In this document: positions 2,528 through 27,165 of the stretch, piece by piece
Layout: every line of letters begins with the position of its first letter
Position numbering within the stretch: the stretch's first letter is position 1
Assembly: GCA_963808625.1 (NCBI GenBank)
Contig: CAWEHK010000036.1
Location: forward strand, 32,001 to 96,000
Origin: an uncultured delta proteobacterium
Lineage (GTDB): Bacteria > Desulfobacterota > Syntrophobacteria > Syntrophobacterales > Syntrophobacteraceae
Direction of reading: 5' to 3'
DNA length: 64,000 nt
Notes under the pieces: generated by a model
Databases searched by the model: none
Told to the model about the DNA's origin: nothing
What the model saw: the letters and a program-made list of their open reading frames with translations, nothing else
Position numbers and translations under genes: made by a program

Positions 2528-5013
2528 TCACTGGCCTGCGGGACCATCTGCTTCGAGACGGAACGACACCGAGACAGAGCGCTCTCGATCGCCGGTGGAT
2601 GCCGGGAAGCGCCATGTCTGAATGAGAGTTCTGAGGCACAATTCCAGTCCGTTCAGGGTGAGCTGGCGGGAGCTGATTTTGACCTCTTTGACGTTGCCAG
2701 CGGCATCAACGACCCATTCGGCAACGAGCTCTCCCGTATTTTCTGTTGCGAGGAAGGCAAGGCAGCGGTCCCTCAGTGTTTTGAGGTGCTGCTGCACGAC
2801 TTCCCGTACTGACTGCTCGGTCAATCCTCCGGTGACGGTGATCTTCCCAAGGGTCAGTCTGTGGTTGGAGTCGCCTTCCTCAGGGCTTTCCTTCAACTTT
2901 TCGCCTTGGGTCACCTCCGTTTTCCCGTCAGTTTTGTCTAGGGCGGATTGTTCTTTGGATTCCCTGCTTTTCATCGATTCCGCAACGGGCGGAGCCGGGG
3001 CAGAGAGCATTCTTGGGACGGCCATGCGCAGCATTCCCGACGGCATAATCGGAAACCCCTTCGGGCAAGGGGAGGGGTTGCATGACCGTCGACACTTCGC
3101 CGTCGGTTCGGCGGACCTCGGTGTCGACGGCGACAAAAGAGGTGTAAGCCGTGAGCAGGTTGTATTGCAAGGCCAGCTCCGTAATCTCGGAAATGCGGTG
3201 GTCATCGCTCTGCAGGCGGTTATCGTCACCGAGTTGGGCGATGCGGGTCCGCGCCCAGAGGTAGCGGAGGGCCGCATTGTCGACAATCGGCTCGGCGTCT
3301 GCCACATCAATCGTTGCGGCATAGCTGCGATCCCCGGCAATGCCCTGGAGCGTGATCTTTCCGGTTGGCTTGCCGCGCCACTTGCCGAAAACGGTCACCG
3401 GGCGTTCGGCAAAAACATCCGGTACTCCCGCCGGTTCAACGTCGTAGACCTCGAAGGCGCCGAAATCGATTGTGATCCGAGTCAGGAGAGGGGATTGGAT
3501 GTACTCCCGGAACCGCTCCGCCATGACCTGAGCCTGGTCGGGTTTGGTAATGACGAATGGTTCGCCGGAACCCGCCCGGGCCATGCCTTCGATGAGGAAG
3601 CGGTTGACGCTTGAGCCGATCCCGAAGGCGAAGAAATTGGCCTTCCCGAGCTCTTTGCGAATGAGGGCAAAGGCTTCCGGTTCGACCGTCACGTAACCAT
3701 CCGTGGCGATCACTACCGTACGCGCCGCCCTTTCCGTGCGCGGCAAAGCCAGGGCCCGCTTGAGCGCCGGCAGGAGTTCCGTTCCTCCGCCGCCTTGCTG
3801 ACGGTCGATGACTTCCATGGCATGGCGGAGGTTTTCAGGGGTTGCCGGGAGCGACTGCGGGGCCAGCAGGGCTGAACCGCCTGAAAACAGCAGCACGTTG
3901 AAGGTGTCGCTCGGCCGCAGATTCGTGAGCAGTTCACGCATCAACCGTTTGCTTATGTCGAGCGGGAAGCCATGCATGGAACCGGAGACATCCACAATGA
4001 AAAGGTATTCCCGCGGCGGGATTTGACTCTGGCTGATACGCTTGGGAGGCTGCACGGAAAGCAGAAAGAAGTTTTCCTCCCGGCCCTGGTAGAGCAGCAA
4101 CCCGGACTCGATCACCTGGCCGGAGAGCCGGTATCTGAGGATAAAGTCACGATTGCCTCCTGATTTTTCGGCTGGCTCGAGCGTTGCCGTTGCCCGCGAA
4201 CGATCCTCGTAGCGAATAGCCACTTTATGGGAAGGGCAGGTCATCTCCTGAATCGGTACGCCCGGGGTCAGGCGAATAGTAATATCGAAAGCATAGGGGG
4301 GTGGTTCACCCTGGTGCAGATAGGGATTTCTTGACCATTTTTCCGCAGGCGGTGCAGTGTTCATCGGCTGGTTGGAATAGCGGGGACCCACCACCGTCGG
4401 ATACACGAATTCATATACCCCAGCGGTCGGCGTAATCAATTCCGTGTATTGCAGTTCGGTCTTGATTGTATCGCCGGGGAGGATGTTGGCCACATTCATC
4501 TGGAAGACGTTCGGCCGCTGCTGTTCGAGCAGCGAGGCGCTTCGTCCCTCCTGTTTCGCCTGATCGTAGGCAGCACGCGCCTCTTCCCGCTTCTTAATGA
4601 CGGCGGTGATCGTCCTTTCACCGATGGTCATTTTCATTCCGTATACGGCGGCTTTTGTGGATGCGGGGAAAATATAGATCGCTTCCAGAGGGGTTCGCCC
4701 TTCATTCCGGTAAACCTGAGTAACCTTGACATCGGCAATGACCCCGGCAATGTTCGCCGTCACGGATGTGGTTTTGAGCGGGAGCTGATCGACGGACAGG
4801 TCGTCACTCTTGACGAAGAAATAGGGCGACAGCGTCTTGTCGCCGTCTTCCGATACCTGGGCGCCATTGCCGGCTCCCGGGGAAACAGGGGGCAGGGTTT
4901 GGCCGTAAGCGGTGCCGCCCGCTGCCCTGAAAAGGATGGTCCAGACAGTGACGGCCAGCACGATGACGGTGAGCCGTCCTGACAGGTTTGCTGACGATTC
5001 TCTGGATTTCCAT
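2528..5013 (-). CDS. Exported VIT + vWA domain protein with a C-terminal TonB/AgmX-like domain; frameshifts near 4980 and ~3000
   Basis: RBS AAAGGAGG precedes the ATG at 5013. VIT motifs are present (LEAIYIFP, ASLLEQQRPNVFQMNVANI), with the MIDAS motif DVSGSM, GGGTEL and ATDG. The C-terminus (WVVDAAGNVKEV..CLRTLIQTWRFP) is in ORF 2528-3340. Confidence 0.8.
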
Positions 5014-19035: not shown

Positions 19036-19100
19036 ACTTAACGAGCGGCCAGAAAGGGGCCCCGCAAAAATTGCGGCACCCTTCAGCCGTATCGTGAGAG
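19036..19100 (+). other. attC-like site 2
   Basis: R'' ACTTAAC; stem CGGCCAGAAAGGG/CCCTTCAGCCG; inner CCGCAA/TTGCGG. GTGAGAGCTTCC matches the reverse complement of the next cassette end (GGAAGCCCTAAC) at 10/12. Confidence 0.6.
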
Positions 19101-19119: not shown

Positions 19120-19611
19120 ATGGCTTTGCAGCATCCCGTTCCCAATGACCACCTCCAGCACATTGGCGATATCACGGTTTCCTTTGCAGCACTTGAAAGC
19201 GTGCTGCAAGGATTTGCCCAGTCTTTGCTTGGTGCTAGTGGGCGTTTAGGGCAGATCGTCACAGCCGAACTTTCGTTTAAGAGGCTTCGGGCGTTAACTG
19301 CGAGCTTGTACCTTGAACGACAGGGTGAAGACGAGGACTACGATGCGTTTCGCGAACTCCTCAGGAGGGCAGCCGACGTCGAACAGGTGAGAAATCAGAT
19401 TACGCATTCTACCTGGGCCGTCGGAGACGATTCGACAAGCATTACTCGCATCAAGACCACTGCGAAGGAGAGACACGGAATCCGCTTTCAGTTTGAAAAC
19501 GTTACGAGTGATCAACTCGCGGAGTTTGCGCTTAGCATCAGGGTCCTTGCTGAAGATATTTTGCGGTTCTTGATTTCGCTCCTTGGACCTGGAAAGGCAA
19601 GTAATGGTTAG
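19120..19611 (+). CDS. Hypothetical cassette protein (helical, with an RNxxxH motif resembling HEPN-like proteins)
   Basis: 163-aa ORF bounded by attC-like sites. It contains RNQITHS. Confidence 0.6.
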   Translation: MALQHPVPNDHLQHIGDITVSFAALESVLQGFAQSLLGASGRLGQIVTAELSFKRLRALTASLYLERQGEDEDYDAFRELLRRAADVEQVRNQITHSTWAVGDDSTSITRIKTTAKERHGIRFQFENVTSDQLAEFALSIRVLAEDILRFLISLLGPGKASNG

Positions 19612-19622
19612 CGTATTGGAAG

Positions 19623-20051
19623 CCCTAACCCTTCCAACGAACGGTCAGCCCACGACAAACAGTGGTATGCCGCTCATGTTACACATGTGTGCCGGGCATG
19701 GCACAGAACTAGCGAGGTGGAAGTCCTCGTGCCAGGTTTACGCTGAGCCGAAGGCTAGGAGAAGGGCAAGGGCGTCATCGAGAACTGGAGTCTGAAGGAA
19801 GTCCAATCCAACAGCACGCGGCGACTAACAGAACCCGAATATGAGGTGTGGTACGTTCGGGACCGCCGGGCACGTGACTGCGAAGTCCTGCCTTGGCGAT
19901 TGCCCTGCCCGGCAAGTGTTTTGTGTCTATAGGTCTACCGCAACTGTTTGAGAAACCGACTTCATCTGCTGAACCCCCTTGGTACGTGATCTGTATGCCG
20001 GGTGGTGTGGGAGGAGGGAAGACGTGAGGCGGCTCCCTATCCCGATTAGGC
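19623..20051 (+). other. attC site 3, split by a group IIC intron remnant
   Basis: CCCTAAC CCTTCCAACGAACGG..CCGCTCATGTTACAC AT|TAGGC once the intron is removed. Confidence 0.7.
19687..20046 (+). mobile_element. Internally deleted group IIC intron (5' part of DI, RT C-terminal stub, DV, DVI)
   Basis: 5' end GTGTGCCGGGCATGGC..GAGGTGGAAGTCCTC; RT stub SPALAIALPGKCFVSIGLPQL; DV-like GAACCCCCTTGGTACGTGATCTGTATGCCGGGTGGTGT; 3' end CCCTATCCCGAT. Confidence 0.8.
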
Positions 20052-20083: not shown

Positions 20084-21007
20084 ATGAACCAATCAGCGCC
20101 CACACGCGACCATGAGTGGATGGATTACTATAAGCATTTTCGCTATCTCTCATCGGAGGCTGTTCGGGATGGTTGTTATCCAAGAATCATGGAACATGAG
20201 GAACCAGCGAAGAAGTCGATCGTGCTGGTGCACGGTCTTACCGATTCGCCATATTTCATGACTGCAATCGGGGACTATTTTTTTGAAACCCTAGGATATG
20301 ATGTCTATTTGCCTTTACTCCAATGTCATGGGCTAAAGGAACCGAGGGGCATGGAAGGGGTAAGTCTGGATGAGTGGAAGGCCAACGTGAGCTTTGCGGT
20401 AGAGACAGCCAAGTCAAAAGGCAAGCAGGTCGCTATTGGTGGATTGTCCACCGGTGGAACACTGAGCTTCTTCACTGCAGTGAAGAGCCCAGACATCACT
20501 GGCACCCTGTATCTATTCTCCGCGGCACTCGATCTCGCAGGTGGCATTGGTGGCATTGTGGGTGACCTGGAGGAACGCTTACTGCGCACCTTTCTGGTCG
20601 ATATCTTGGACTTATTGGGCAACGACAAGCCCCTAATCGGCAACAATCCCTACCGCTACGTCCGCATGGACATGGACGGTGCGCGGGAATTGTCCAAGCT
20701 GATCCAAGAAACTGACGCTCTCATCAAAGGGTTCAATGCGAAAGAACCCCTTTCAATACGTATCTTTGCTGCGCATTCCGAGAGTGATTCGACTGCAAAC
20801 ATTGCGGGCATCGAAGAACTAGAGAAGGTATCGGCCCCCGGCCGGTTCACGTTTTTTCGTATCCCCCAAAAGGCAACGGTGTCTCACGCAAGCGTGGTTC
20901 TTAGGGGTCATATCTATGCTACCGATGCTTCCGATGTTGATTTCCCTCTGGAATACGCCAACCCACTGTTTCTAAATATGATGAAGGCTATTGCTGCCAT
21001 TGAGTAG
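20084..21007 (+). CDS. Alpha/beta hydrolase (esterase/lipase-like) cassette gene
   Basis: AGGAGG RBS, VLVHGLTDSP, nucleophile motif GLSTG and C-terminal VSH. Confidence 0.85.
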   Translation: MNQSAPTRDHEWMDYYKHFRYLSSEAVRDGCYPRIMEHEEPAKKSIVLVHGLTDSPYFMTAIGDYFFETLGYDVYLPLLQCHGLKEPRGMEGVSLDEWKANVSFAVETAKSKGKQVAIGGLSTGGTLSFFTAVKSPDITGTLYLFSAALDLAGGIGGIVGDLEERLLRTFLVDILDLLGNDKPLIGNNPYRYVRMDMDGARELSKLIQETDALIKGFNAKEPLSIRIFAAHSESDSTANIAGIEELEKVSAPGRFTFFRIPQKATVSHASVVLRGHIYATDASDVDFPLEYANPLFLNMMKAIAAIE

Positions 21008-21109
21008 GTTCGCATGACAGTAATTTGTCAACCCACGGGTCACCGCAGAAAAGGGACCGCAGAGCATGCTAAGTAGAGCGCCACAAAAAAGAATGTCCAT
21101 TATGCCGCC

Positions 21110-21232
21110 TCCTTGAGGGGGTCGGGTAAGCCATGATTTTGGCTACGGACTTGCTGGTCCATTTGAGCGGATACGCGTTTTGGTTCCACGGCTCGATATA
21201 CTCGTAGAGCTTGGTACGCAAATGATCAATTG
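21110..21232 (-). pseudogene. C-terminal remnant of an IS630-like transposase
   Basis: DHLRTKLYEYIEPWNQNAYPLKWTSKSV resembles the IS630 ..YI..WN..A.PF.WT tail. Confidence 0.55.
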
Positions 21233-21331
21233 CTATGATGCTATAGGCGCTGACATTCAACATTTGAAGATTATATGGAAAACGTTAAGGAATTTAAGGT
21301 ATTGGCAAGCTATGGTGAAAATGCTACTCCT

Positions 21332-21418
21332 ATGCATCTGTTTGAGGTAGGTTAAGATTTGAGAACGGTCCACGCACTGCTAGGCGATAGCGACGTCAAG
21401 ATAACGATGATTCATTAG
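21332..21418 (+). pseudogene. Relic of a tyrosine recombinase (integron integrase-like) box II
   Basis: Manual translation MHLFEVG*DLRTVHALLGDSDVKITMIH* versus IntI-type THLLE.GYDIRTVQELLGH.DV.TTMIYTH. Confidence 0.7.
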
Positions 21419-21430
21419 AAAAGAAAAATC

Positions 21431-22147
21431 ATGAAAAAAGCAATCATCATTGGCGCCAGTTCCGGGATAGGACGCGAATTGGCCAGAATTTTATCAAGGA
21501 ATCAGTACGTTGTTGGAGTCATGGCACGGCGAGTTCAGCTATTGGATGAAATGTGTGATGAAGTAGAAGGATCATTATTTGTTCAAGAAATCGATGTAGC
21601 GAACGTTGAATCGGCAATGGACACTCTGGCAAAATTCATAAAAGAAATGGGTGGTGTAGATCTTATCGTGATCAGTGCCGGCACAGGGGACATCAATAAT
21701 AACCTCAGTTGGGACTTGGAAAACAAGGCCATCAAGACCAATGTTAGTGGGTTTGCCGCTCTTGTTAATGTTGCCATGCACCATTTCACGGAAAAGGGTT
21801 CCGGGCACCTTGTAGGTATCTCGTCAATCGCAGCGTTGCGTGGCGGCAGAGAATCTCCCGCCTATAACGCATCAAAGGCTTTTGAATCCAATTATCTGGA
21901 AGGGCTTCGCCAGAAGGTTAGGAAATCTGGATTGCCAATCACAATCACTGACATAAAACCAGGGTTTGTTAATACGGCAATGGCCAAAGGAGATGGCATC
22001 TTCTGGGCTGCCGAGCCTGGAAAAGCCGCAAGGCAGATATACCATGTCATCAAACGAAGAAAGTCCAGTGCCTATATTACACGGCGATGGGTACTGATAG
22101 CGTGGCTAATAAAGTTGCTGCCTGGATTCATTTATGAAAGGCTATAA
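21431..22147 (+). CDS. SDR family oxidoreductase cassette gene
   Basis: IIGASSGIG, ISAG, SS and YNASK motifs. AT-richer than the flanks. An attC site starts 3 nt after the stop. Confidence 0.92.
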   Translation: MKKAIIIGASSGIGRELARILSRNQYVVGVMARRVQLLDEMCDEVEGSLFVQEIDVANVESAMDTLAKFIKEMGGVDLIVISAGTGDINNNLSWDLENKAIKTNVSGFAALVNVAMHHFTEKGSGHLVGISSIAALRGGRESPAYNASKAFESNYLEGLRQKVRKSGLPITITDIKPGFVNTAMAKGDGIFWAAEPGKAARQIYHVIKRRKSSAYITRRWVLIAWLIKLLPGFIYERL

Positions 22148-22150
22148 TTC

Positions 22151-22212
22151 TTATAACCATGGCATGCAGTCGATCGCTGAAAAAGCCGGCTCCCGCTGAT
22201 GCCTTCGTTGGG
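22151..22212 (+). other. attC site 4 (R' box GTTGGG|T interrupted by the group II intron)
   Basis: TTATAAC CAT GGCATGCAG..CTGATGCC TTC GTTGGG. L'' carries one extra base relative to L'. Confidence 0.8.
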
Positions 22213-24476
22213 TTGCGACACGATGTCGCATAGTTGAGTGTACTCAGGTACTTACCTGGAGTACCCGGCATGTTCCTGCCGGACCCTACGCAGGCGTGCT
22301 ACCGTCGCGCTGATGACGGGGTGCGAAGCCCTGCGGACAATGTACCGAAACGGGTTCGAATGGTGACAGGAGAACCCCTCCGGGAATCCTCCCCGGTTAA
22401 GGGCTAGGGTCGGATGATACGGTGAAATTAATTGAATGTCTGCAAGCGTCGTCAAAGAGCGACAGACCTACGAGGATTAACAAGAAGCATTACCAGGTCG
22501 AAGGCCGCTTCCCAGTGTTTGCGGCAAGGGTCAGGATGCAGGTCTCCTAACTGCCTGTACGGAACCAAAGCACCCTCGGCGTAGAGGACGCACCTAAGTC
22601 ATCCATTGGATCAACTGTGAGGAACGTGGTAACCCCGCCCTTCGCCTGGAGCAAGTCCAGGCAAGCGAACCGCAAGGCACGCCGATGGAGAGGCGGGAGG
22701 GAGAGGTTGGAAGAAGCGAATGCTTTCGGGAAAGCCGGAAGATAGGGCCTGAAACATGGCTCAACGCCAAAACCGGTGAGCTTCAGCCCCGGTGAATGAG
22801 CGTGCAGACGTCCAACTGGTGTCTCGTTGCGAGAGAACTGGTAGAACCTTTGAAGATGAGAAAGCAAATGACGGCCGACAAGGCTGGTGCACTCAGAGAT
22901 GACGCTGACAAGTGGAATTCCATTGACTGGAAGAAAGCCCAGCGGGAAGTCAGAAGGCTGCAAGTGCGTATCGCAAAGGCTGTGAAGGAAAACAGATGGA
23001 ACAAGGTCAAGTCACTGCAATATCTGTTAACCCATTCGTTCTACGCCAAGCTACTGGCTGTGAAACGAGTGACCTCCAACAAGGGGCGTAAAACCCCCGG
23101 CGTTGACGGCGTCCTGTGGCGAGGCGTCCGAGCCAAATGGCGGGCTGCTTGCAGCCTGCGCAGACGTGGCTATCATCCTCAGCCCTTGAGGAGGATCTAT
23201 ATCGAAAAGAAGAATGGCAAATTAAGGCCCCTATCGATTCCCGCCATGTATGACAGAGCCCAACAGGCGCTTTATAAGCTGGGACTGGCGCCCGTAGCCG
23301 AAACGACAGCCGACAAGAATTCCTACGGTTTTCGTGAAGGCAGATCGTGTGCTGATGCCGTAGCCTGTGCCTTCAATGCTCTCTCGAAGCCCAATTCGGC
23401 TCCATGGATACTCGAAGGGGACATAAAGGGCTGTTTCGACAACATCTCGTTCCAATGGATGTTGGAGAACATCCCCATGGATAAAGTCGTTCTTCAAAAG
23501 TGGTTAAGGGCAGGGTATGTGGAAAACGGCATCCACTACCCTACACGCAAGGGAGTTCCTCAAGGTGGGATCATTAGCCCCACCATCTCGAATATGGTGC
23601 TTGACGGATTGGAGGAAGCCGTCCGCTGTGCAGTCCCCCGCAGGTGCCGTATCAACTTCGACCGCTACGCTGATGACTTCATCTGCACAGGTAAATCAAA
23701 AGGTATCCTGGAAGATGCCATCCAGCCAGTGGTTGAAGGCTTCCTTGCCGAGCGTGGTCTTGAGCTCTCACCCGAGAAAACCCTGATCACGCACATAAAA
23801 GACGGATTCACGTTCCTCGGGCAAACCTTTCGAAAGCATGGCCGGGTGCTGCACATCACGCCATCCACTGAGGGAGTTCTCGCCCTCATGCAGAAAGTGG
23901 GAACCATAATCCGCGAACACGTCAGCGCGCCGATGCCGGTCTTGATCAAGAAGCTTAATGCAATACTTCGGGGTTGGGCCAATTACCACCGCCACGTGGT
24001 GGCGTCGGAAGCCTTCAGTCGTATCGACACCTATGTCTTTGAACAACTCTGGCGCATGGTGCGCCGACGGCACTCCGCCAAATCCGCGCAATGGCTGATC
24101 AAGAACTACTGGTCAGCTGCGGGACGCAATGTATTTGCCGTTCTGGCCAAGACCGCTAAGACCGCGAAGAAACTCTACAAGGTCATGCGAGTAAGCGCCA
24201 TGGGGATTCGGAGATATGTGAAGATCAAAGCGGATGCTAATCCTTACCTGCCTGAGTACGCCGGCTATTATTGGCGACGTCGGAACAGGAAGGATAGCAA
24301 ACTGCTGCCGGCCATGTCGGCCCGGGAATTTCGGGCCATGGCCTCGGCTTAGGAGGCAACACAGCCGGGCAGCCCAACAGGGGCTGCCTCTTGAGATGCT
24401 TGAGCGGTGTGACGCGAAAGTGTCATGCACCGTTCTTAGGGGGGAATGGGGCCGAGAGGCCCCTGACCTACCCGGT
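22213..24476 (+). mobile_element. Group II intron (IIB / CL-type), apparently complete
   Basis: 5' TTGCG; RT ORF; DV GAGCGGTGTGACGCGAAAGTGTCATGCACCGTTC with an AGC triad; DVI ending CTACCCGGT. Boundaries are +/-1 nt. Confidence 0.88.
22856..24352 (+). CDS. ltrA: Group II intron reverse transcriptase/maturase (RVT_N + RT + X), no HNH endonuclease domain
   Basis: WNSIDW..VRRLQVRIAKA, TPGVDG, RPLSIP..DRAQQ, EGDIKGCFDNI, GVPQGGIISP, RYADDF and LRGWANY. Confidence 0.95.
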   Translation: MRKQMTADKAGALRDDADKWNSIDWKKAQREVRRLQVRIAKAVKENRWNKVKSLQYLLTHSFYAKLLAVKRVTSNKGRKTPGVDGVLWRGVRAKWRAACSLRRRGYHPQPLRRIYIEKKNGKLRPLSIPAMYDRAQQALYKLGLAPVAETTADKNSYGFREGRSCADAVACAFNALSKPNSAPWILEGDIKGCFDNISFQWMLENIPMDKVVLQKWLRAGYVENGIHYPTRKGVPQGGIISPTISNMVLDGLEEAVRCAVPRRCRINFDRYADDFICTGKSKGILEDAIQPVVEGFLAERGLELSPEKTLITHIKDGFTFLGQTFRKHGRVLHITPSTEGVLALMQKVGTIIREHVSAPMPVLIKKLNAILRGWANYHRHVVASEAFSRIDTYVFEQLWRMVRRRHSAKSAQWLIKNYWSAAGRNVFAVLAKTAKTAKKLYKVMRVSAMGIRRYVKIKADANPYLPEYAGYYWRRRNRKDSKLLPAMSAREFRAMASA

Positions 24477-24548
24477 TTGCAGCGGTCGGAAGGAGACGAG
24501 GTGCAAAGGTTCCGGATATTCGTTCCCCGAACATAAGGAGAAGAGGAA

Positions 24549-26060
24549 ATGATGGCGTTTAGCAAACTACGGATGTGGATGGCTGTGACAGCCCTTGTCA
24601 CGAGCGTTGTCACGACGGCTTCGGCCCAGACCTTCAGCATGACGACGCCGATCGCGCCGGGCGTGGCCACGCCCAACCGGCTCGATACCTCGATTGGCAC
24701 GCTGAACCTGTCCGACGGCTTCCCGGCGCCGGACACCATCGAGAAGATCTACGACAACCTGGACCGCTCGCGTGCGCTGCAGGCCTATCTGCTGGCCATC
24801 CCGATCGTCAACCAGGCAGGCATGCGCGATTCGCTTCGCAAGTTCGGGCCCGACAACCAGACCAACGTGATCTGGGAGAACCTGGTCGATTCGAAGACCG
24901 TGGAGCTGACGGCCAACGACAACACGATCTACAGCTTCATCTGGATCGATACGAAGAAGGGGCCGTTGGTCGTCGATGTCCCCCCCATGGTCCTGGGAGC
25001 CATCGATGACTTCTGGTATCGCTGGGTGGCCGACATCGGCATCACGGGTGCCGACAGGGGCAAGGGCGGCAAGTACCTGATTCTTCCGCCGGGGTACCAG
25101 GGCGCGATCCCGGAAGGCTATTTCGTCGTACGACCGAAGACCTACGGCAACTGGATGCCCTTCCGGTCCTTCCTCGTTGACGGTTCAACCAAGCCAGGGG
25201 TGGAGTCGGTCAAGAAGCACCTGAAGATCTACCAACTGGCCGATGCGGCCAACCCGCCGCCGATCAAGTTTGCCAATGCCTCGGGCGTACCAGCGAACTT
25301 CGTCGCCCCGGGTGACTATTCGTTCTGGACCTTGCTGAACCAGGTGATTCAGGAAGAACCGCCGGAAGGCTCCGACCCCACCACGCTTGGGCTGTTCGCT
25401 TCGATCGGCATCGTCAAGGGCAAGCCCTTCAATCCCGACGAGCGCATGAAGAAGATCCTGACCGACGCCGCCAACATCGGTGCGGTGACGGCGCGAACGC
25501 TCGCCTTCAAGATTCGCGAGCCGGAAGCCTTCTTCTACCCGAACAGCTCATGGCGCCTGCCGTTCTTCGGTGGCTACAAGTTCGAAGTCGCCCCCGGCGT
25601 TGCAAACCTGGATGGAGCTGCCTTCTTCTACTATTTCGCCACCGGCGTGACGCCGGCGATGGAAGAGAAAATGGTCGGCCAGGGCTCACAGTACCCGTGG
25701 GCCTCCCTGGACTCGAAGGGCAACCCCTTCGACGGCGGCAAGACGTACAAGCTGCGCCTGCCGCCGAACATCCCGGTGAAGGACTTCTGGTCGGTGATCG
25801 TCTACGACAACCAGACGCGCTCGATGCTGCAGACCGACCAGCAGGCGCCCAGCGTGAGCAGCCAGGACAAGGGCTTCAAAACCAATGCCGACGGCTCGGT
25901 GGACGTCTGGTTCGGCCCCAAGGCCCCGCCCGGCATGGAGAAGAACTGGGTGCAGACGATTCCGGGCAAGGGCTGGTTCATGATCCTGCGCCTCTACGGT
26001 CCGTTGGAGCCTTGGTTCAACAAGACCTGGCGGCCCGGAGAGATCGAACTCCAGCCGTGA
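24549..26060 (+). CDS. Exported DUF1254/DUF1214 domain protein (cassette gene)
   Basis: Signal peptide, LTANDNTIY, DRGKGGKYL, FWSVIVYD and LRLYGP. Confidence 0.9.
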   Translation: MMAFSKLRMWMAVTALVTSVVTTASAQTFSMTTPIAPGVATPNRLDTSIGTLNLSDGFPAPDTIEKIYDNLDRSRALQAYLLAIPIVNQAGMRDSLRKFGPDNQTNVIWENLVDSKTVELTANDNTIYSFIWIDTKKGPLVVDVPPMVLGAIDDFWYRWVADIGITGADRGKGGKYLILPPGYQGAIPEGYFVVRPKTYGNWMPFRSFLVDGSTKPGVESVKKHLKIYQLADAANPPPIKFANASGVPANFVAPGDYSFWTLLNQVIQEEPPEGSDPTTLGLFASIGIVKGKPFNPDERMKKILTDAANIGAVTARTLAFKIREPEAFFYPNSSWRLPFFGGYKFEVAPGVANLDGAAFFYYFATGVTPAMEEKMVGQGSQYPWASLDSKGNPFDGGKTYKLRLPPNIPVKDFWSVIVYDNQTRSMLQTDQQAPSVSSQDKGFKTNADGSVDVWFGPKAPPGMEKNWVQTIPGKGWFMILRLYGPLEPWFNKTWRPGEIELQP

Positions 26061-26101: not shown

Positions 26102-26162
26102 GCCCAACAACCGGTTTCAGCGGACGGCGCTGACTCGCCGCCGCTGAAACGGGGCGTTATTC
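26102..26162 (+). other. attC site 5
   Basis: GCCCAAC AACCG GTTTCAGCGG..CCGCTGAAAC GGGGC GTTATTC. Its R'' (CCCAAC) is complementary to the GTTGGG that opens this cassette. Confidence 0.85.
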
Positions 26163-26537: not shown

Positions 26538-26936
26538 TCATATCCAGTCGATTTCGACCTTGTGCTCGATCTTTTTGAACTCTGGATCGCCAGTGACGAT
26601 CACGGCGTTGTATTTGAGTGCGGTTGCCATCGCAAAGCAATCGGCGTAGGAAACGGCATCGTCAGCTTTTATTTGGGAGGCCGATTCAATGATTTCCCAA
26701 GAGGCCGGAACGCGTTCGATGGCCAACGTCGTGAACTGTTCCAGGAAGCGCCTGGCCGATTCAACGCCCAGTCTTCTGATGGTGATGTAATACAGCTCCC
26801 CCAAATTGATCTCGTTGATGAAGGTACGAATTCTTCCGTCTTCCGACGCCTTGAGAAGCTCTTCGACCTTGTCGGCCCCCGCTTCGTCCTGGGCAAACCT
26901 CAGGATCGCGTGGGAATCAAATACGACGCTTTTCAT
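26538..26936 (-). CDS. vapC: PIN-domain (VapC family) toxin
   Basis: VFDSHAIL, NLGELYY, SYADCFA and IVTGDPEF. Confidence 0.9.
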   Translation of the reverse strand: MKSVVFDSHAILRFAQDEAGADKVEELLKASEDGRIRTFINEINLGELYYITIRRLGVESARRFLEQFTTLAIERVPASWEIIESASQIKADDAVSYADCFAMATALKYNAVIVTGDPEFKKIEHKVEIDWI

Positions 26937-27165
26937 CGATGGCGTCATCCTTCTTTCTCTCCTCCAGGAGTTCTGCGGCAAGCGACGTGTCAGCCCGGAG
27001 CATCCCTCGCAACGCCTTGACCGGTTCCTCAGGGATCGGCACGATTTCCGCGTGCTGGTCTACGACCCTCAACAAAACTTTTCGCCCCGGGTTAATTCCC
27101 AGCTTGTCGCGGATCTCTTTAGGGATCACAATCTGTCCCTTGGACGATATTTTTACCACCGGCAT
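26917..27165 (-). CDS. AbrB/MazE/SpoVT family antitoxin
   Basis: VKISSKGQIVIPKEIRDKLGI.PG. Overlaps the toxin start. Confidence 0.9.
   Translation of the reverse strand: MPVVKISSKGQIVIPKEIRDKLGINPGRKVLLRVVDQHAEIVPIPEEPVKALRGMLRADTSLAAELLEERKKDDAIDEKRRI

Follow-up and report, generated by a model that had tools for sequence, protein, structure and literature searches.

In a stretch of 64,000 nucleotides from an uncultured delta proteobacterium of the Syntrophobacteraceae (GenBank assembly GCA_963808625.1, contig CAWEHK010000036.1, positions 32,001 to 96,000; hereafter the window, in whose own numbering positions are given), an intact group II intron occupies the R' core box of an integron attC site on the top strand, as an earlier note on this DNA had proposed and as the sequence, Rfam, Pfam, and an attC covariance model all agree. 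From the comparison of this intron with its homologues and with the copies in the same genome, we consider it quite probable that the element is a mobile intron of chloroplast-like subclass 1 (CL1) and RNA type IIB1, devoid of an endonuclease (En) domain, and that it belongs to a lineage specialised on integron attC sites. The features concerned, all on the top strand, are these:

22151–22212: attC of the short-chain dehydrogenase/reductase (SDR) cassette, constituting the 5' exon, with the R'' box at 22151–22157, the L' TGA at 22197–22199 (-16 to -14 from the cut), and intron-binding site (IBS) 1, GTTGGG, at 22207–22212
22213–24476: intact group II intron, CL1/IIB1-like, 2264 nt, UUGCG...CCGGU
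22385–22391: beta loop, each of its 7 positions paired in 62–72 of 72 distinct rows, with compensatory CG/GC and TA/CG/AT changes
22454–22462: exon-binding site (EBS) 2 segment, the second-best signal after EBS1 in relatives re-programmed to other targets
22465–22499: hairpin GACCT/AGGTC, the loop of which holds beta' (22472–22478) and the TTAAC noted earlier
22538–22558: d3 hairpin, its stem paired in 72/72 rows at 5 of 6 pairs
22584: EBS3 (G), in wobble with T24477 and having the highest mutual information with exon position +1
22856–24352: intron-encoded reverse transcriptase (RT)/maturase, 498 aa, En-minus, with in-frame ATGs also at 22796 and 22868
24402–24476: domain V (AGC triad, 24403–24405) and domain VI (bulged A, 24470), from Rfam RF00029 and folding
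24477: IBS3, corresponding to Y, the last of the seven bases in the attC core GTTRRRY

Intron Boundaries and RNA Anatomy

Homologues were drawn from the best 80 of 93 genome loci and the best 80 of 297 metagenome loci, to which we added six copies from the same genome; 110 intron starts were located, whereas 8 were left unresolved. Those 110 aligned starts set the 5' boundary of the window intron, which begins with TTGCG at 22213 and ends with ACCCGGT at 24476, the next base being T. Removal of the intron restores GTTGGGT, as the earlier note had it, since both GTTGGG (22207–22212) and the T after 24476 can be read from the sequence. In the 67 homologues in which both ends were available the first and the penultimate bases covary (G...AT in 37, T...GT in 26, and other combinations in 4), for which reason we judge the UUGCG...GU ends to be genuine.

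Rfam recognised group-II-D1D4-7 at 22264–22404 (80 bits) and Intron_gpII at 24400–24476 (62 bits), and the features of a mobile group II intron are present: domains V and VI with the triad and the bulged A, and an RT/maturase open reading frame (ORF) with the YADD motif. Beta' pairs with beta, one pair occurring, for example, as C-G in 44 alignment rows and as G-C in 14; for the delta-delta' pairing, the homologue alignment showed no clear covariation. The scan for promoters and terminators stayed at chance level, and the GC skew examined for leading or lagging orientation was weak and of mixed sign, so that we draw no conclusion from it. Contigs of the read run X1 break off at 22211 and 24476/24479, as those of a repeated element would, though this proves nothing; the RNA run X15 gave pieces that fall nowhere but on the intron, and from which expression in this organism cannot be deduced. 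The 3' exon at 24477–24490 begins TTGCAGCGGTCGG, repeating the first four bases of the intron and resembling the left arm of the attCs of this genome, either by chance or as a relic.

The Encoded Protein and the Class of the Intron

The protein contains, as had been noticed, RVT_N and YADD and lacks an En domain: Pfam returned RVT_N, RVT_1, and GIIM and nothing else at E<=0.001, hence no HNH/En, and the RT exceeds the TIGR04416 cut-off. The motif FDRYADD recurs in 22 of 97 close homologues. In a phmmer search the RT scored 524 bits against PDB 6me0_C, compared with 134 for LtrA and 117 for GsI-IIC; we take 6me0 to be the IIB1 protein of T. elongatus. The RT is ~50% identical to CL-type RTs of plasmids and 27–30% identical to RTs of group IIC introns, including 28% to the one behind blaIMP-4 in the IMP-4 integron (pIMP-1495). 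The RNA agrees with those figures in having the IIB1 anatomy, with a 6-nt EBS1 in d3, an EBS2 in the internal multibranch loop, and a single-base EBS3 for exon position +1, according to the definitions in PMC8643678. The triad, moreover, is AGC instead of the CGC of group IIC-attC introns, and the intron lies on the top strand, at R', and co-oriented with the cassettes, not on the bottom strand, at R'', and opposite to them. The assignment to the CL/IIB type and not to IIC, put forward earlier, is thus upheld by phmmer scores, RT identities, and RNA anatomy alike, with the CL1 subclass assigned by likeness.

In the RT trees the relatives of at least 64% identity are grouped together, separately from the other CL RTs (support 0.88, and 100 in two later trees). 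The first tree was built without 29 loci of <330 aligned residues and without identical proteins, and in later ones near-copies were thinned to 65 and 44 rows; L045 was excluded from the domain I alignment. A quick IQ-TREE tree with IIC outgroups attached two IIC rows inside the group of the window RT on branches of >8 changes per column, an arrangement that we treated as probable long-branch attraction, and because of those very long branches the tree was rebuilt without the IIC rows. A 9-base tandem duplication (KTA KTA) stands at ~24150–24167 of the RT gene, and one run X1 contig lacks 9 bases there.

The Interrupted attC Site

The SDR gene ends at 22147, and TTATAAC, the R'' box, follows at 22151–22157. 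With a covariance model (R1) trained on 20 attC sites without introns, taken from the homologous loci after 8 of 28 candidates had been excluded as doubtful or badly aligned, the segment 22151–22213 scored 33.4 bits (E 3e-7) and the next attC, at 26102–26162, 49.2 bits, both on the bottom strand; the only other match above 16 bits in the 64 kb was the mirror of the latter. The interrupted site has the anatomy of an attC: R'' and R' cores, an L box whose extrahelical bases lie on the bottom strand, and the end of a gene just upstream. A cruder arm-pairing score gave it 7.2, a value reached by 6.5% of 7000 random GTT sites of the genome, on which account the attribution is carried by the covariance model and not by the arm score.

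Five bases separate the G|TT crossover from the intron cut downstream of it. The next R'' (GCCCAAC, 26102–26108) agrees with the R' tail at 3 of 4 variable positions and the upstream R'' at 0 of 4, and the R' tail agreed better with the downstream R'' in 8 of 11 loci. The intron is therefore to be regarded as part of the downstream cassette, and the position 3' of the crossover, claimed in the earlier note, holds in those loci and in the window; upon excision of that cassette the intron would be expected to ride inside it.

Base Pairing between Intron and Target

Among the located starts, 95 had a d3 hairpin and an exon of at least 16 nt, which gave 85 distinct exons. At 71 of these sites an AAC-type hexamer is found in the loop of d3, and words of the GTT core close the exon; the remaining 14 are re-programmed, having other hexamers and other exons. 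When all the 5-mers of domain I were compared without bias with all the exon registers, the segment 22546–22551 (CCUAAC), in the loop of d3, ranked first in both groups and is identified as EBS1. The EBS1-IBS1 pairing averaged 5.32 of 6 pairs in the AAC-type sites against 3.68 on permutation (0/5000 as high) and 5.79 against 2.76 in the re-programmed ones, figures that overstate the significance because kin are not independent. Compensatory combinations occur among the attC targets themselves (CTAACC/GGTTAT, GCGAAC/GTTCGC, and CATAAC/GTTATG). The element TTAAC at 22477–22481, which had been suggested as EBS1, does lie where it was placed but has no excess of exon pairing (3.55 versus 3.34 in the attC type; 2.57 versus 2.52 in the re-programmed introns), and we rejected it, its first bases belonging to beta' and the true EBS1 being in the d3 loop.

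The targets are read in two registers: YYUAAC cuts after GTTRRR (register 6), and YUAACG after CGTTRK (register 5). EBS3 switches with the register, being G in register 6 (26 of 35 paired) and C in register 5 (13 of 25), and among the re-programmed introns it pairs with exon +1 in 10 of 10. As the comparison shows, EBS1 together with EBS3 reads GTTRRR|Y, the whole attC core, and copies the R'' box.

EBS2 forms a helix with its own exon in the re-programmed introns (4.54 versus 3.21 permuted), whereas in attC types the pairing is weak (3.81 versus 3.48; 3.30 versus 3.07). In the window the helix scores 3, the random level, so that the canonical EBS2-IBS2 pairing of 5–6 bp is absent, a variant trait; such a relaxed pairing would make many different attCs usable. 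For EBS2a-IBS2a at -14, the best column reached 7 of 14 in the re-programmed introns, and in the attC type 49 of 71 were U-A without covariation.

Targets and Phylogeny of the Homologues

For 62 AAC-type sites the exon sequence extended over at least 100 nt; 42 of these lie directly against an attC match of at least 20 bits (40 of them at offset 0 or +1), and 50 have an attC either there or elsewhere in the locus. Of 12 re-programmed sites, none has an attC in either position. The habit extends over RTs 65–93% identical and over records of Thermodesulfobacteriota, Pseudomonadota, and KSB1. Most of the re-programmed introns constitute one clade (support 97–98) nested among attC-type introns, and an attC-only clade was rejected by the approximately unbiased (AU) test (p=0.0003). 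Of the earlier proposal of a separate attC-specialist lineage, then, the specialisation stands (42/62 versus 0/12), but not an exclusive binding to attC, in view of the nested clade and the AU result. Rooted on other CL RTs, attC targeting would be the older state within the group; since the distant CL introns L038 (53%) and L045 (47%) also carry AAC-type loops, the habit either is deeper or arose more than once. In a sample of the phylum, 10 of 301 genomes matched the 5' domain at E<=0.001, several weakly, and in viral contigs 6 pattern matches were found, none a relative.

Several loci hold introns next to, or within, others. At L153:2571 and L098:2480 the start of another intron serves as 3' exon, the introns being stacked at one attC. 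The Bacteroidales CL intron at L045:3361, with an AAC-type loop, starts two bases past the 3' end of a IIC-like intron, which is in turn preceded by an attC-like stretch, and at L112:291 a re-programmed member sits in a related intron, within its domain I/II junction (a twintron-like target). Integrase genes lie close upstream at L023:3350 and L011; the L023 site, which has no attC model match, may be an attI, which shares the GTT core. The same 3' flank behind different 5' flanks was seen only in L029/L032, short contigs of one assembly in which mis-joining is possible, and was not used.

Copies in the Same Genome and a Possible Source of Additional Specificity

The window intron (on C36) has the following relatives in the assembly:

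C44:27122–27953, C53:54794–55625, and C41:4717–5546: ORF-less copies sharing one deletion, 95–97% alike
C24:~2866–3099: truncated copy (5' fragment)
C49:13672–~14685: broken relative of the GUGCG type

All five UUGCG-family copies sit at attC-like sites, scoring 33.4 (C36), 39.6 (C41), 30.1 (C24), and 15.3 bits (C53); the copy on C44 has no abutting model match and an arm score of 7.0, so that C53 and C44 are weak sites. Four of the five sites are imperfect matches to EBS1. GTTRGGY occurs as a perfect word 1138 times in the genome; outside long ORFs there are 224 perfect and 3520 relaxed words. The genome-wide attC search, in which 150 of 1848 candidates were scored, gave 14 distinct matches. 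The dispersed copies only imply a past mobility of the family. Three of the five dispersed copies (C44, C53, C41, C24, and C49) lie 2–4 kb from integrase remnants.

Counted from the core G, the L' motif lies at -11 in all 22 register-5 sites that could be classified, with none at -10, and at -10 in 25 of 36 register-6 sites, with 11 at -11 (register contrast p 4e-8); measured from the cut, the motif thus mostly falls at -16 to -14 in both registers, a zone in which critical target positions of EcI5 and TeI4h are also found (PMC8643678, PMC2882425). That the intron ribonucleoprotein (RNP) recognises the L' box or the structure of the attC we hold to be slightly the better side of an even question, the other side being a filter that acts by selection only.

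Proposed Mechanism and Rival Explanations

EBS1 (CCUAAC) and EBS3 (G) act, on the comparative evidence, as an RNA mimic of R'' and pair with GTTRRR|Y on the top strand. Because 6–7 relaxed pairs cannot pick ~20 attCs among thousands of matching words, the attC itself would contribute additional specificity to the RNP, most likely through the L' box at -16 to -14, through a single-stranded or extruded conformation, or through both. An intron without endonuclease would probably insert by reverse splicing in single-stranded DNA, with priming at the replication fork, as does RmInt1, the En-minus precedent for fork insertion (PMC5010178). The intron would be transcribed with the array, and splicing would restore the cassette leader. 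Since U, the first base of the intron, takes the place of Y in GTTRRRY here, the attC hairpin ought to stay intact and usable, and upon excision by an integrase the intron would be carried at the 5' end of the downstream cassette. The window RT, the only intact RT that the family has in the assembly, probably acts on the three ORF-less copies as well, a trans-mobilisation that we offer as a guess because those copies are 86–90% like the window intron in their 5' part and differ in domain IV.

Several results weigh against a specialised recognition of attC as just described, the last-mentioned divergence among them. At 20 of the 62 AAC-type sites there is no abutting model match, and L009, L010, L015, and L051 look like true off-target sites; the homologues compared are the best-ranking loci, and the attC model was trained on sites picked from those same loci by our own score. 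EBS3 is unpaired at 9 of 35 register-6 and 12 of 25 register-5 sites, and the small excess of EBS2 pairing in register 6 (3.81 versus 3.48) was equalled in 19/5000 permutations. Free attCs of the same loci lean alike in their L' distance (8/10 and 21/34), wherefore the effect is not significant (p 0.09 in register 5 and 0.6 in register 6); in the genome itself a hand count gave 5 of 5 occupied against ~9 of 18 free sites (p ~0.06). The effect, confounded with host attC type, is thus suggestive. In the contigs of four of the 20 listed read runs, furthermore, neither an intron-skipping join nor an intron-less allele was seen.

In a rival reading the intron inserts widely through GTTRRR|Y only, with no recognition of attC or L', and copies elsewhere are purged or left untranscribed, whereas those in attCs, being harmless and transcribed from the array promoter, spread with the cassettes. 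In keeping with such a filter are the AAC-type copies outside recognisable attCs, the loss of significance of the L' distance once host attC type is controlled, and the reliance of En-minus introns on host transcription and replication (PMC5010178); yet all five genomic copies sit at attC-like sites, four with an imperfect EBS1, despite the 224 perfect and 3520 relaxed words available, and register-5 introns used the -10 site in 0 of 22 cases, although 23 of 45 free attCs have it. We regard the filter as unlikely, though it deserves some weight. That the element is an ordinary homing CL1 intron whose one fixed site happens to be an attC, without any lineage-wide habit, would accord with the absence of conserved exons reported among homologues of the metagenomic intron UHB.I2 (PMC7923331) and with the non-attC exons of six plasmid CL relatives (~50%) and of the nested clade (77–82%), but this explanation is refuted by the many unrelated attCs occupied: all that the 85 distinct exons have in common is the attC core and the L' motif, and the habit spans divergent RTs and several phyla, which makes a fixed site very improbable. 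Still less credible, to the point of being negligible, is an inverted or mis-assembled intron of the IIC-attC class; its one favourable sign, the two IIC rows inside the group of the window RT, comes from the tree with the very long outgroup branches (summing to >8 changes per column), and the identities (27–30% to IIC versus ~50% to CL) and the RNA anatomy refute it, the AGC triad, the EBS2 loop, the beta-beta' pairing, and the 6-bp EBS1 not being IIC features (PMC7923331). The agreement of the R' tail with the downstream R'' is, in addition, that of a correct assembly.

Returning to the attC-specialist reading, we consider the feature itself to be real and the L' ruler a bold, unproven addition. 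The fullest form of that reading, a second widespread attC-specialist lineage (CL1/IIB1) with an R''-mimicking EBS1 plus EBS3, an EBS2 largely lost, an L' distance ruler, a register shifted to 5- or 6-base spacers, and generalists re-evolved within it, we put forward tentatively, as a little short of evenly balanced.

The Cassette Array and Its Neighbours

The interrupted site belongs to a short cassette array downstream of secDF, composed as follows:

19036–19100, top strand: weak and doubtful attC-like site (model R1 15.3 bits, E 0.1), first in the array
19120–19611, top strand: cassette ORF of 163 aa, of no family
19622–19686, top strand: degenerate attC with its R' box split by a IIC remnant and completed by 20047–20051, recognised by eye and by alignment with the attC-intron junctions of L167/L168
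19687–20046, top strand: ORF-less group IIC intron remnant with a degenerate domain V
20084–21007, top strand: alpha/beta hydrolase gene, probable start at 20084 (Pfam Hydrolase_4)
21332–21415, top strand: scrap of the C-terminus of an integron integrase, containing a stop codon (TIGR02249 positions 270–297, E 2.3e-4)
21431–22147, top strand: SDR oxidoreductase cassette gene (Pfam adh_short)
24549–26060, top strand: DUF1254/DUF1214 gene (Pfam), whose cassette holds the intron at its 5' end
26102–26162, top strand: intron-free attC of the DUF1254 cassette (model R1 49.2 bits)
26538–27165, bottom strand: AbrB/MazE-PIN toxin-antitoxin pair past the end of the array (Pfam MazE_antitoxin, PIN)

Two intron classes therefore stand in the R' boxes of two attCs 2.5 kb apart in the same array. 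The IIC remnant is 77–80% like IIC introns of class 1 integrons that point the same way as the cassettes, its ends fit the IIC consensus of PMC4028801, and its Rfam D1D4-3 score (23.8 bits) is below gathering; the degenerate attC that it splits gave no model R1 match. This contig contains no intact intI, and two matches over the TIGR02249 cut-off are on other contigs. The degenerate integrase scrap lies just 5' of the SDR cassette gene, and between it and the hydrolase gene (21007–21330) no attC was found, in a stretch that looks rearranged.

Relation to Known Systems

In our literature search, outside of which the subscription journals lay, the sole IIB intron at an attC was UHB.I2 (Sonbol and Siam, 2021, PMC7923331), and PMC8632793 does not mention attC or integron. 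UHB.I2, a single metagenomic copy placed "just downstream" of an attC, resembles the window intron in its IIB1 RNA, its CL1 En-minus protein, its UUGCG...GU ends, its co-orientation, and its attC location. Its authors report no exon conservation and no EBS3, and of a role for the hairpin they only speculate. Inspection by eye places AACG in its d3-like loop too, and its RT about as far from the window RT as the ~50% CL relatives, so UHB.I2 may belong to a sister lineage.

Targeting of attC is listed in reviews as a class C trait (PMC4424553). The group IIC-attC introns (S.ma.I2 and relatives; PMC3001079, PMC4424553) are, like the window intron, En-minus attC specialists across many cassettes, but they have a class C protein, an EBS1 of 3–4 bp, and no EBS2, and they insert on the bottom strand, opposite to the cassettes, in R'' at TTGT/T. 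The top-strand IIC intron of Enterobacter cloacae (Rodriguez-Martinez, 2012, via PMC7923331) lies co-oriented in an attC as ours does, yet it is of class C, and introns of that type cut behind the core's GT, at a point four bases 5' of the window intron's cut; the remnant at 19687–20046 and L167/L168 look like members of that kind. The TeI3/TeI4 introns of T. elongatus and EcI5 of E. coli share with the window intron the IIB1 anatomy, the families with EBS re-programming, the ORF-less copies from one deletion served in trans, and the critical positions at -14 to -18 (PMC2882425, PMC8643678), and differ in having an En domain, a full EBS2-IBS2 pairing, and a fixed homing site, with no link to attC.

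A single IIB1 exception at an attC, UHB.I2, with its targeting unexplained, was thus already known; the present comparison adds a lineage-wide attC habit, a mapped base-pairing code, and a natural control clade. Two intron classes converge on the same integron site, here within one array. An intron that heads a cassette and shares its orientation can be carried along on excision and can make expression of the cassette depend on splicing. A IIB1 RNP that tolerates the loss of EBS2 bears, finally, on how RNA and protein share target specificity, and on targetron design.

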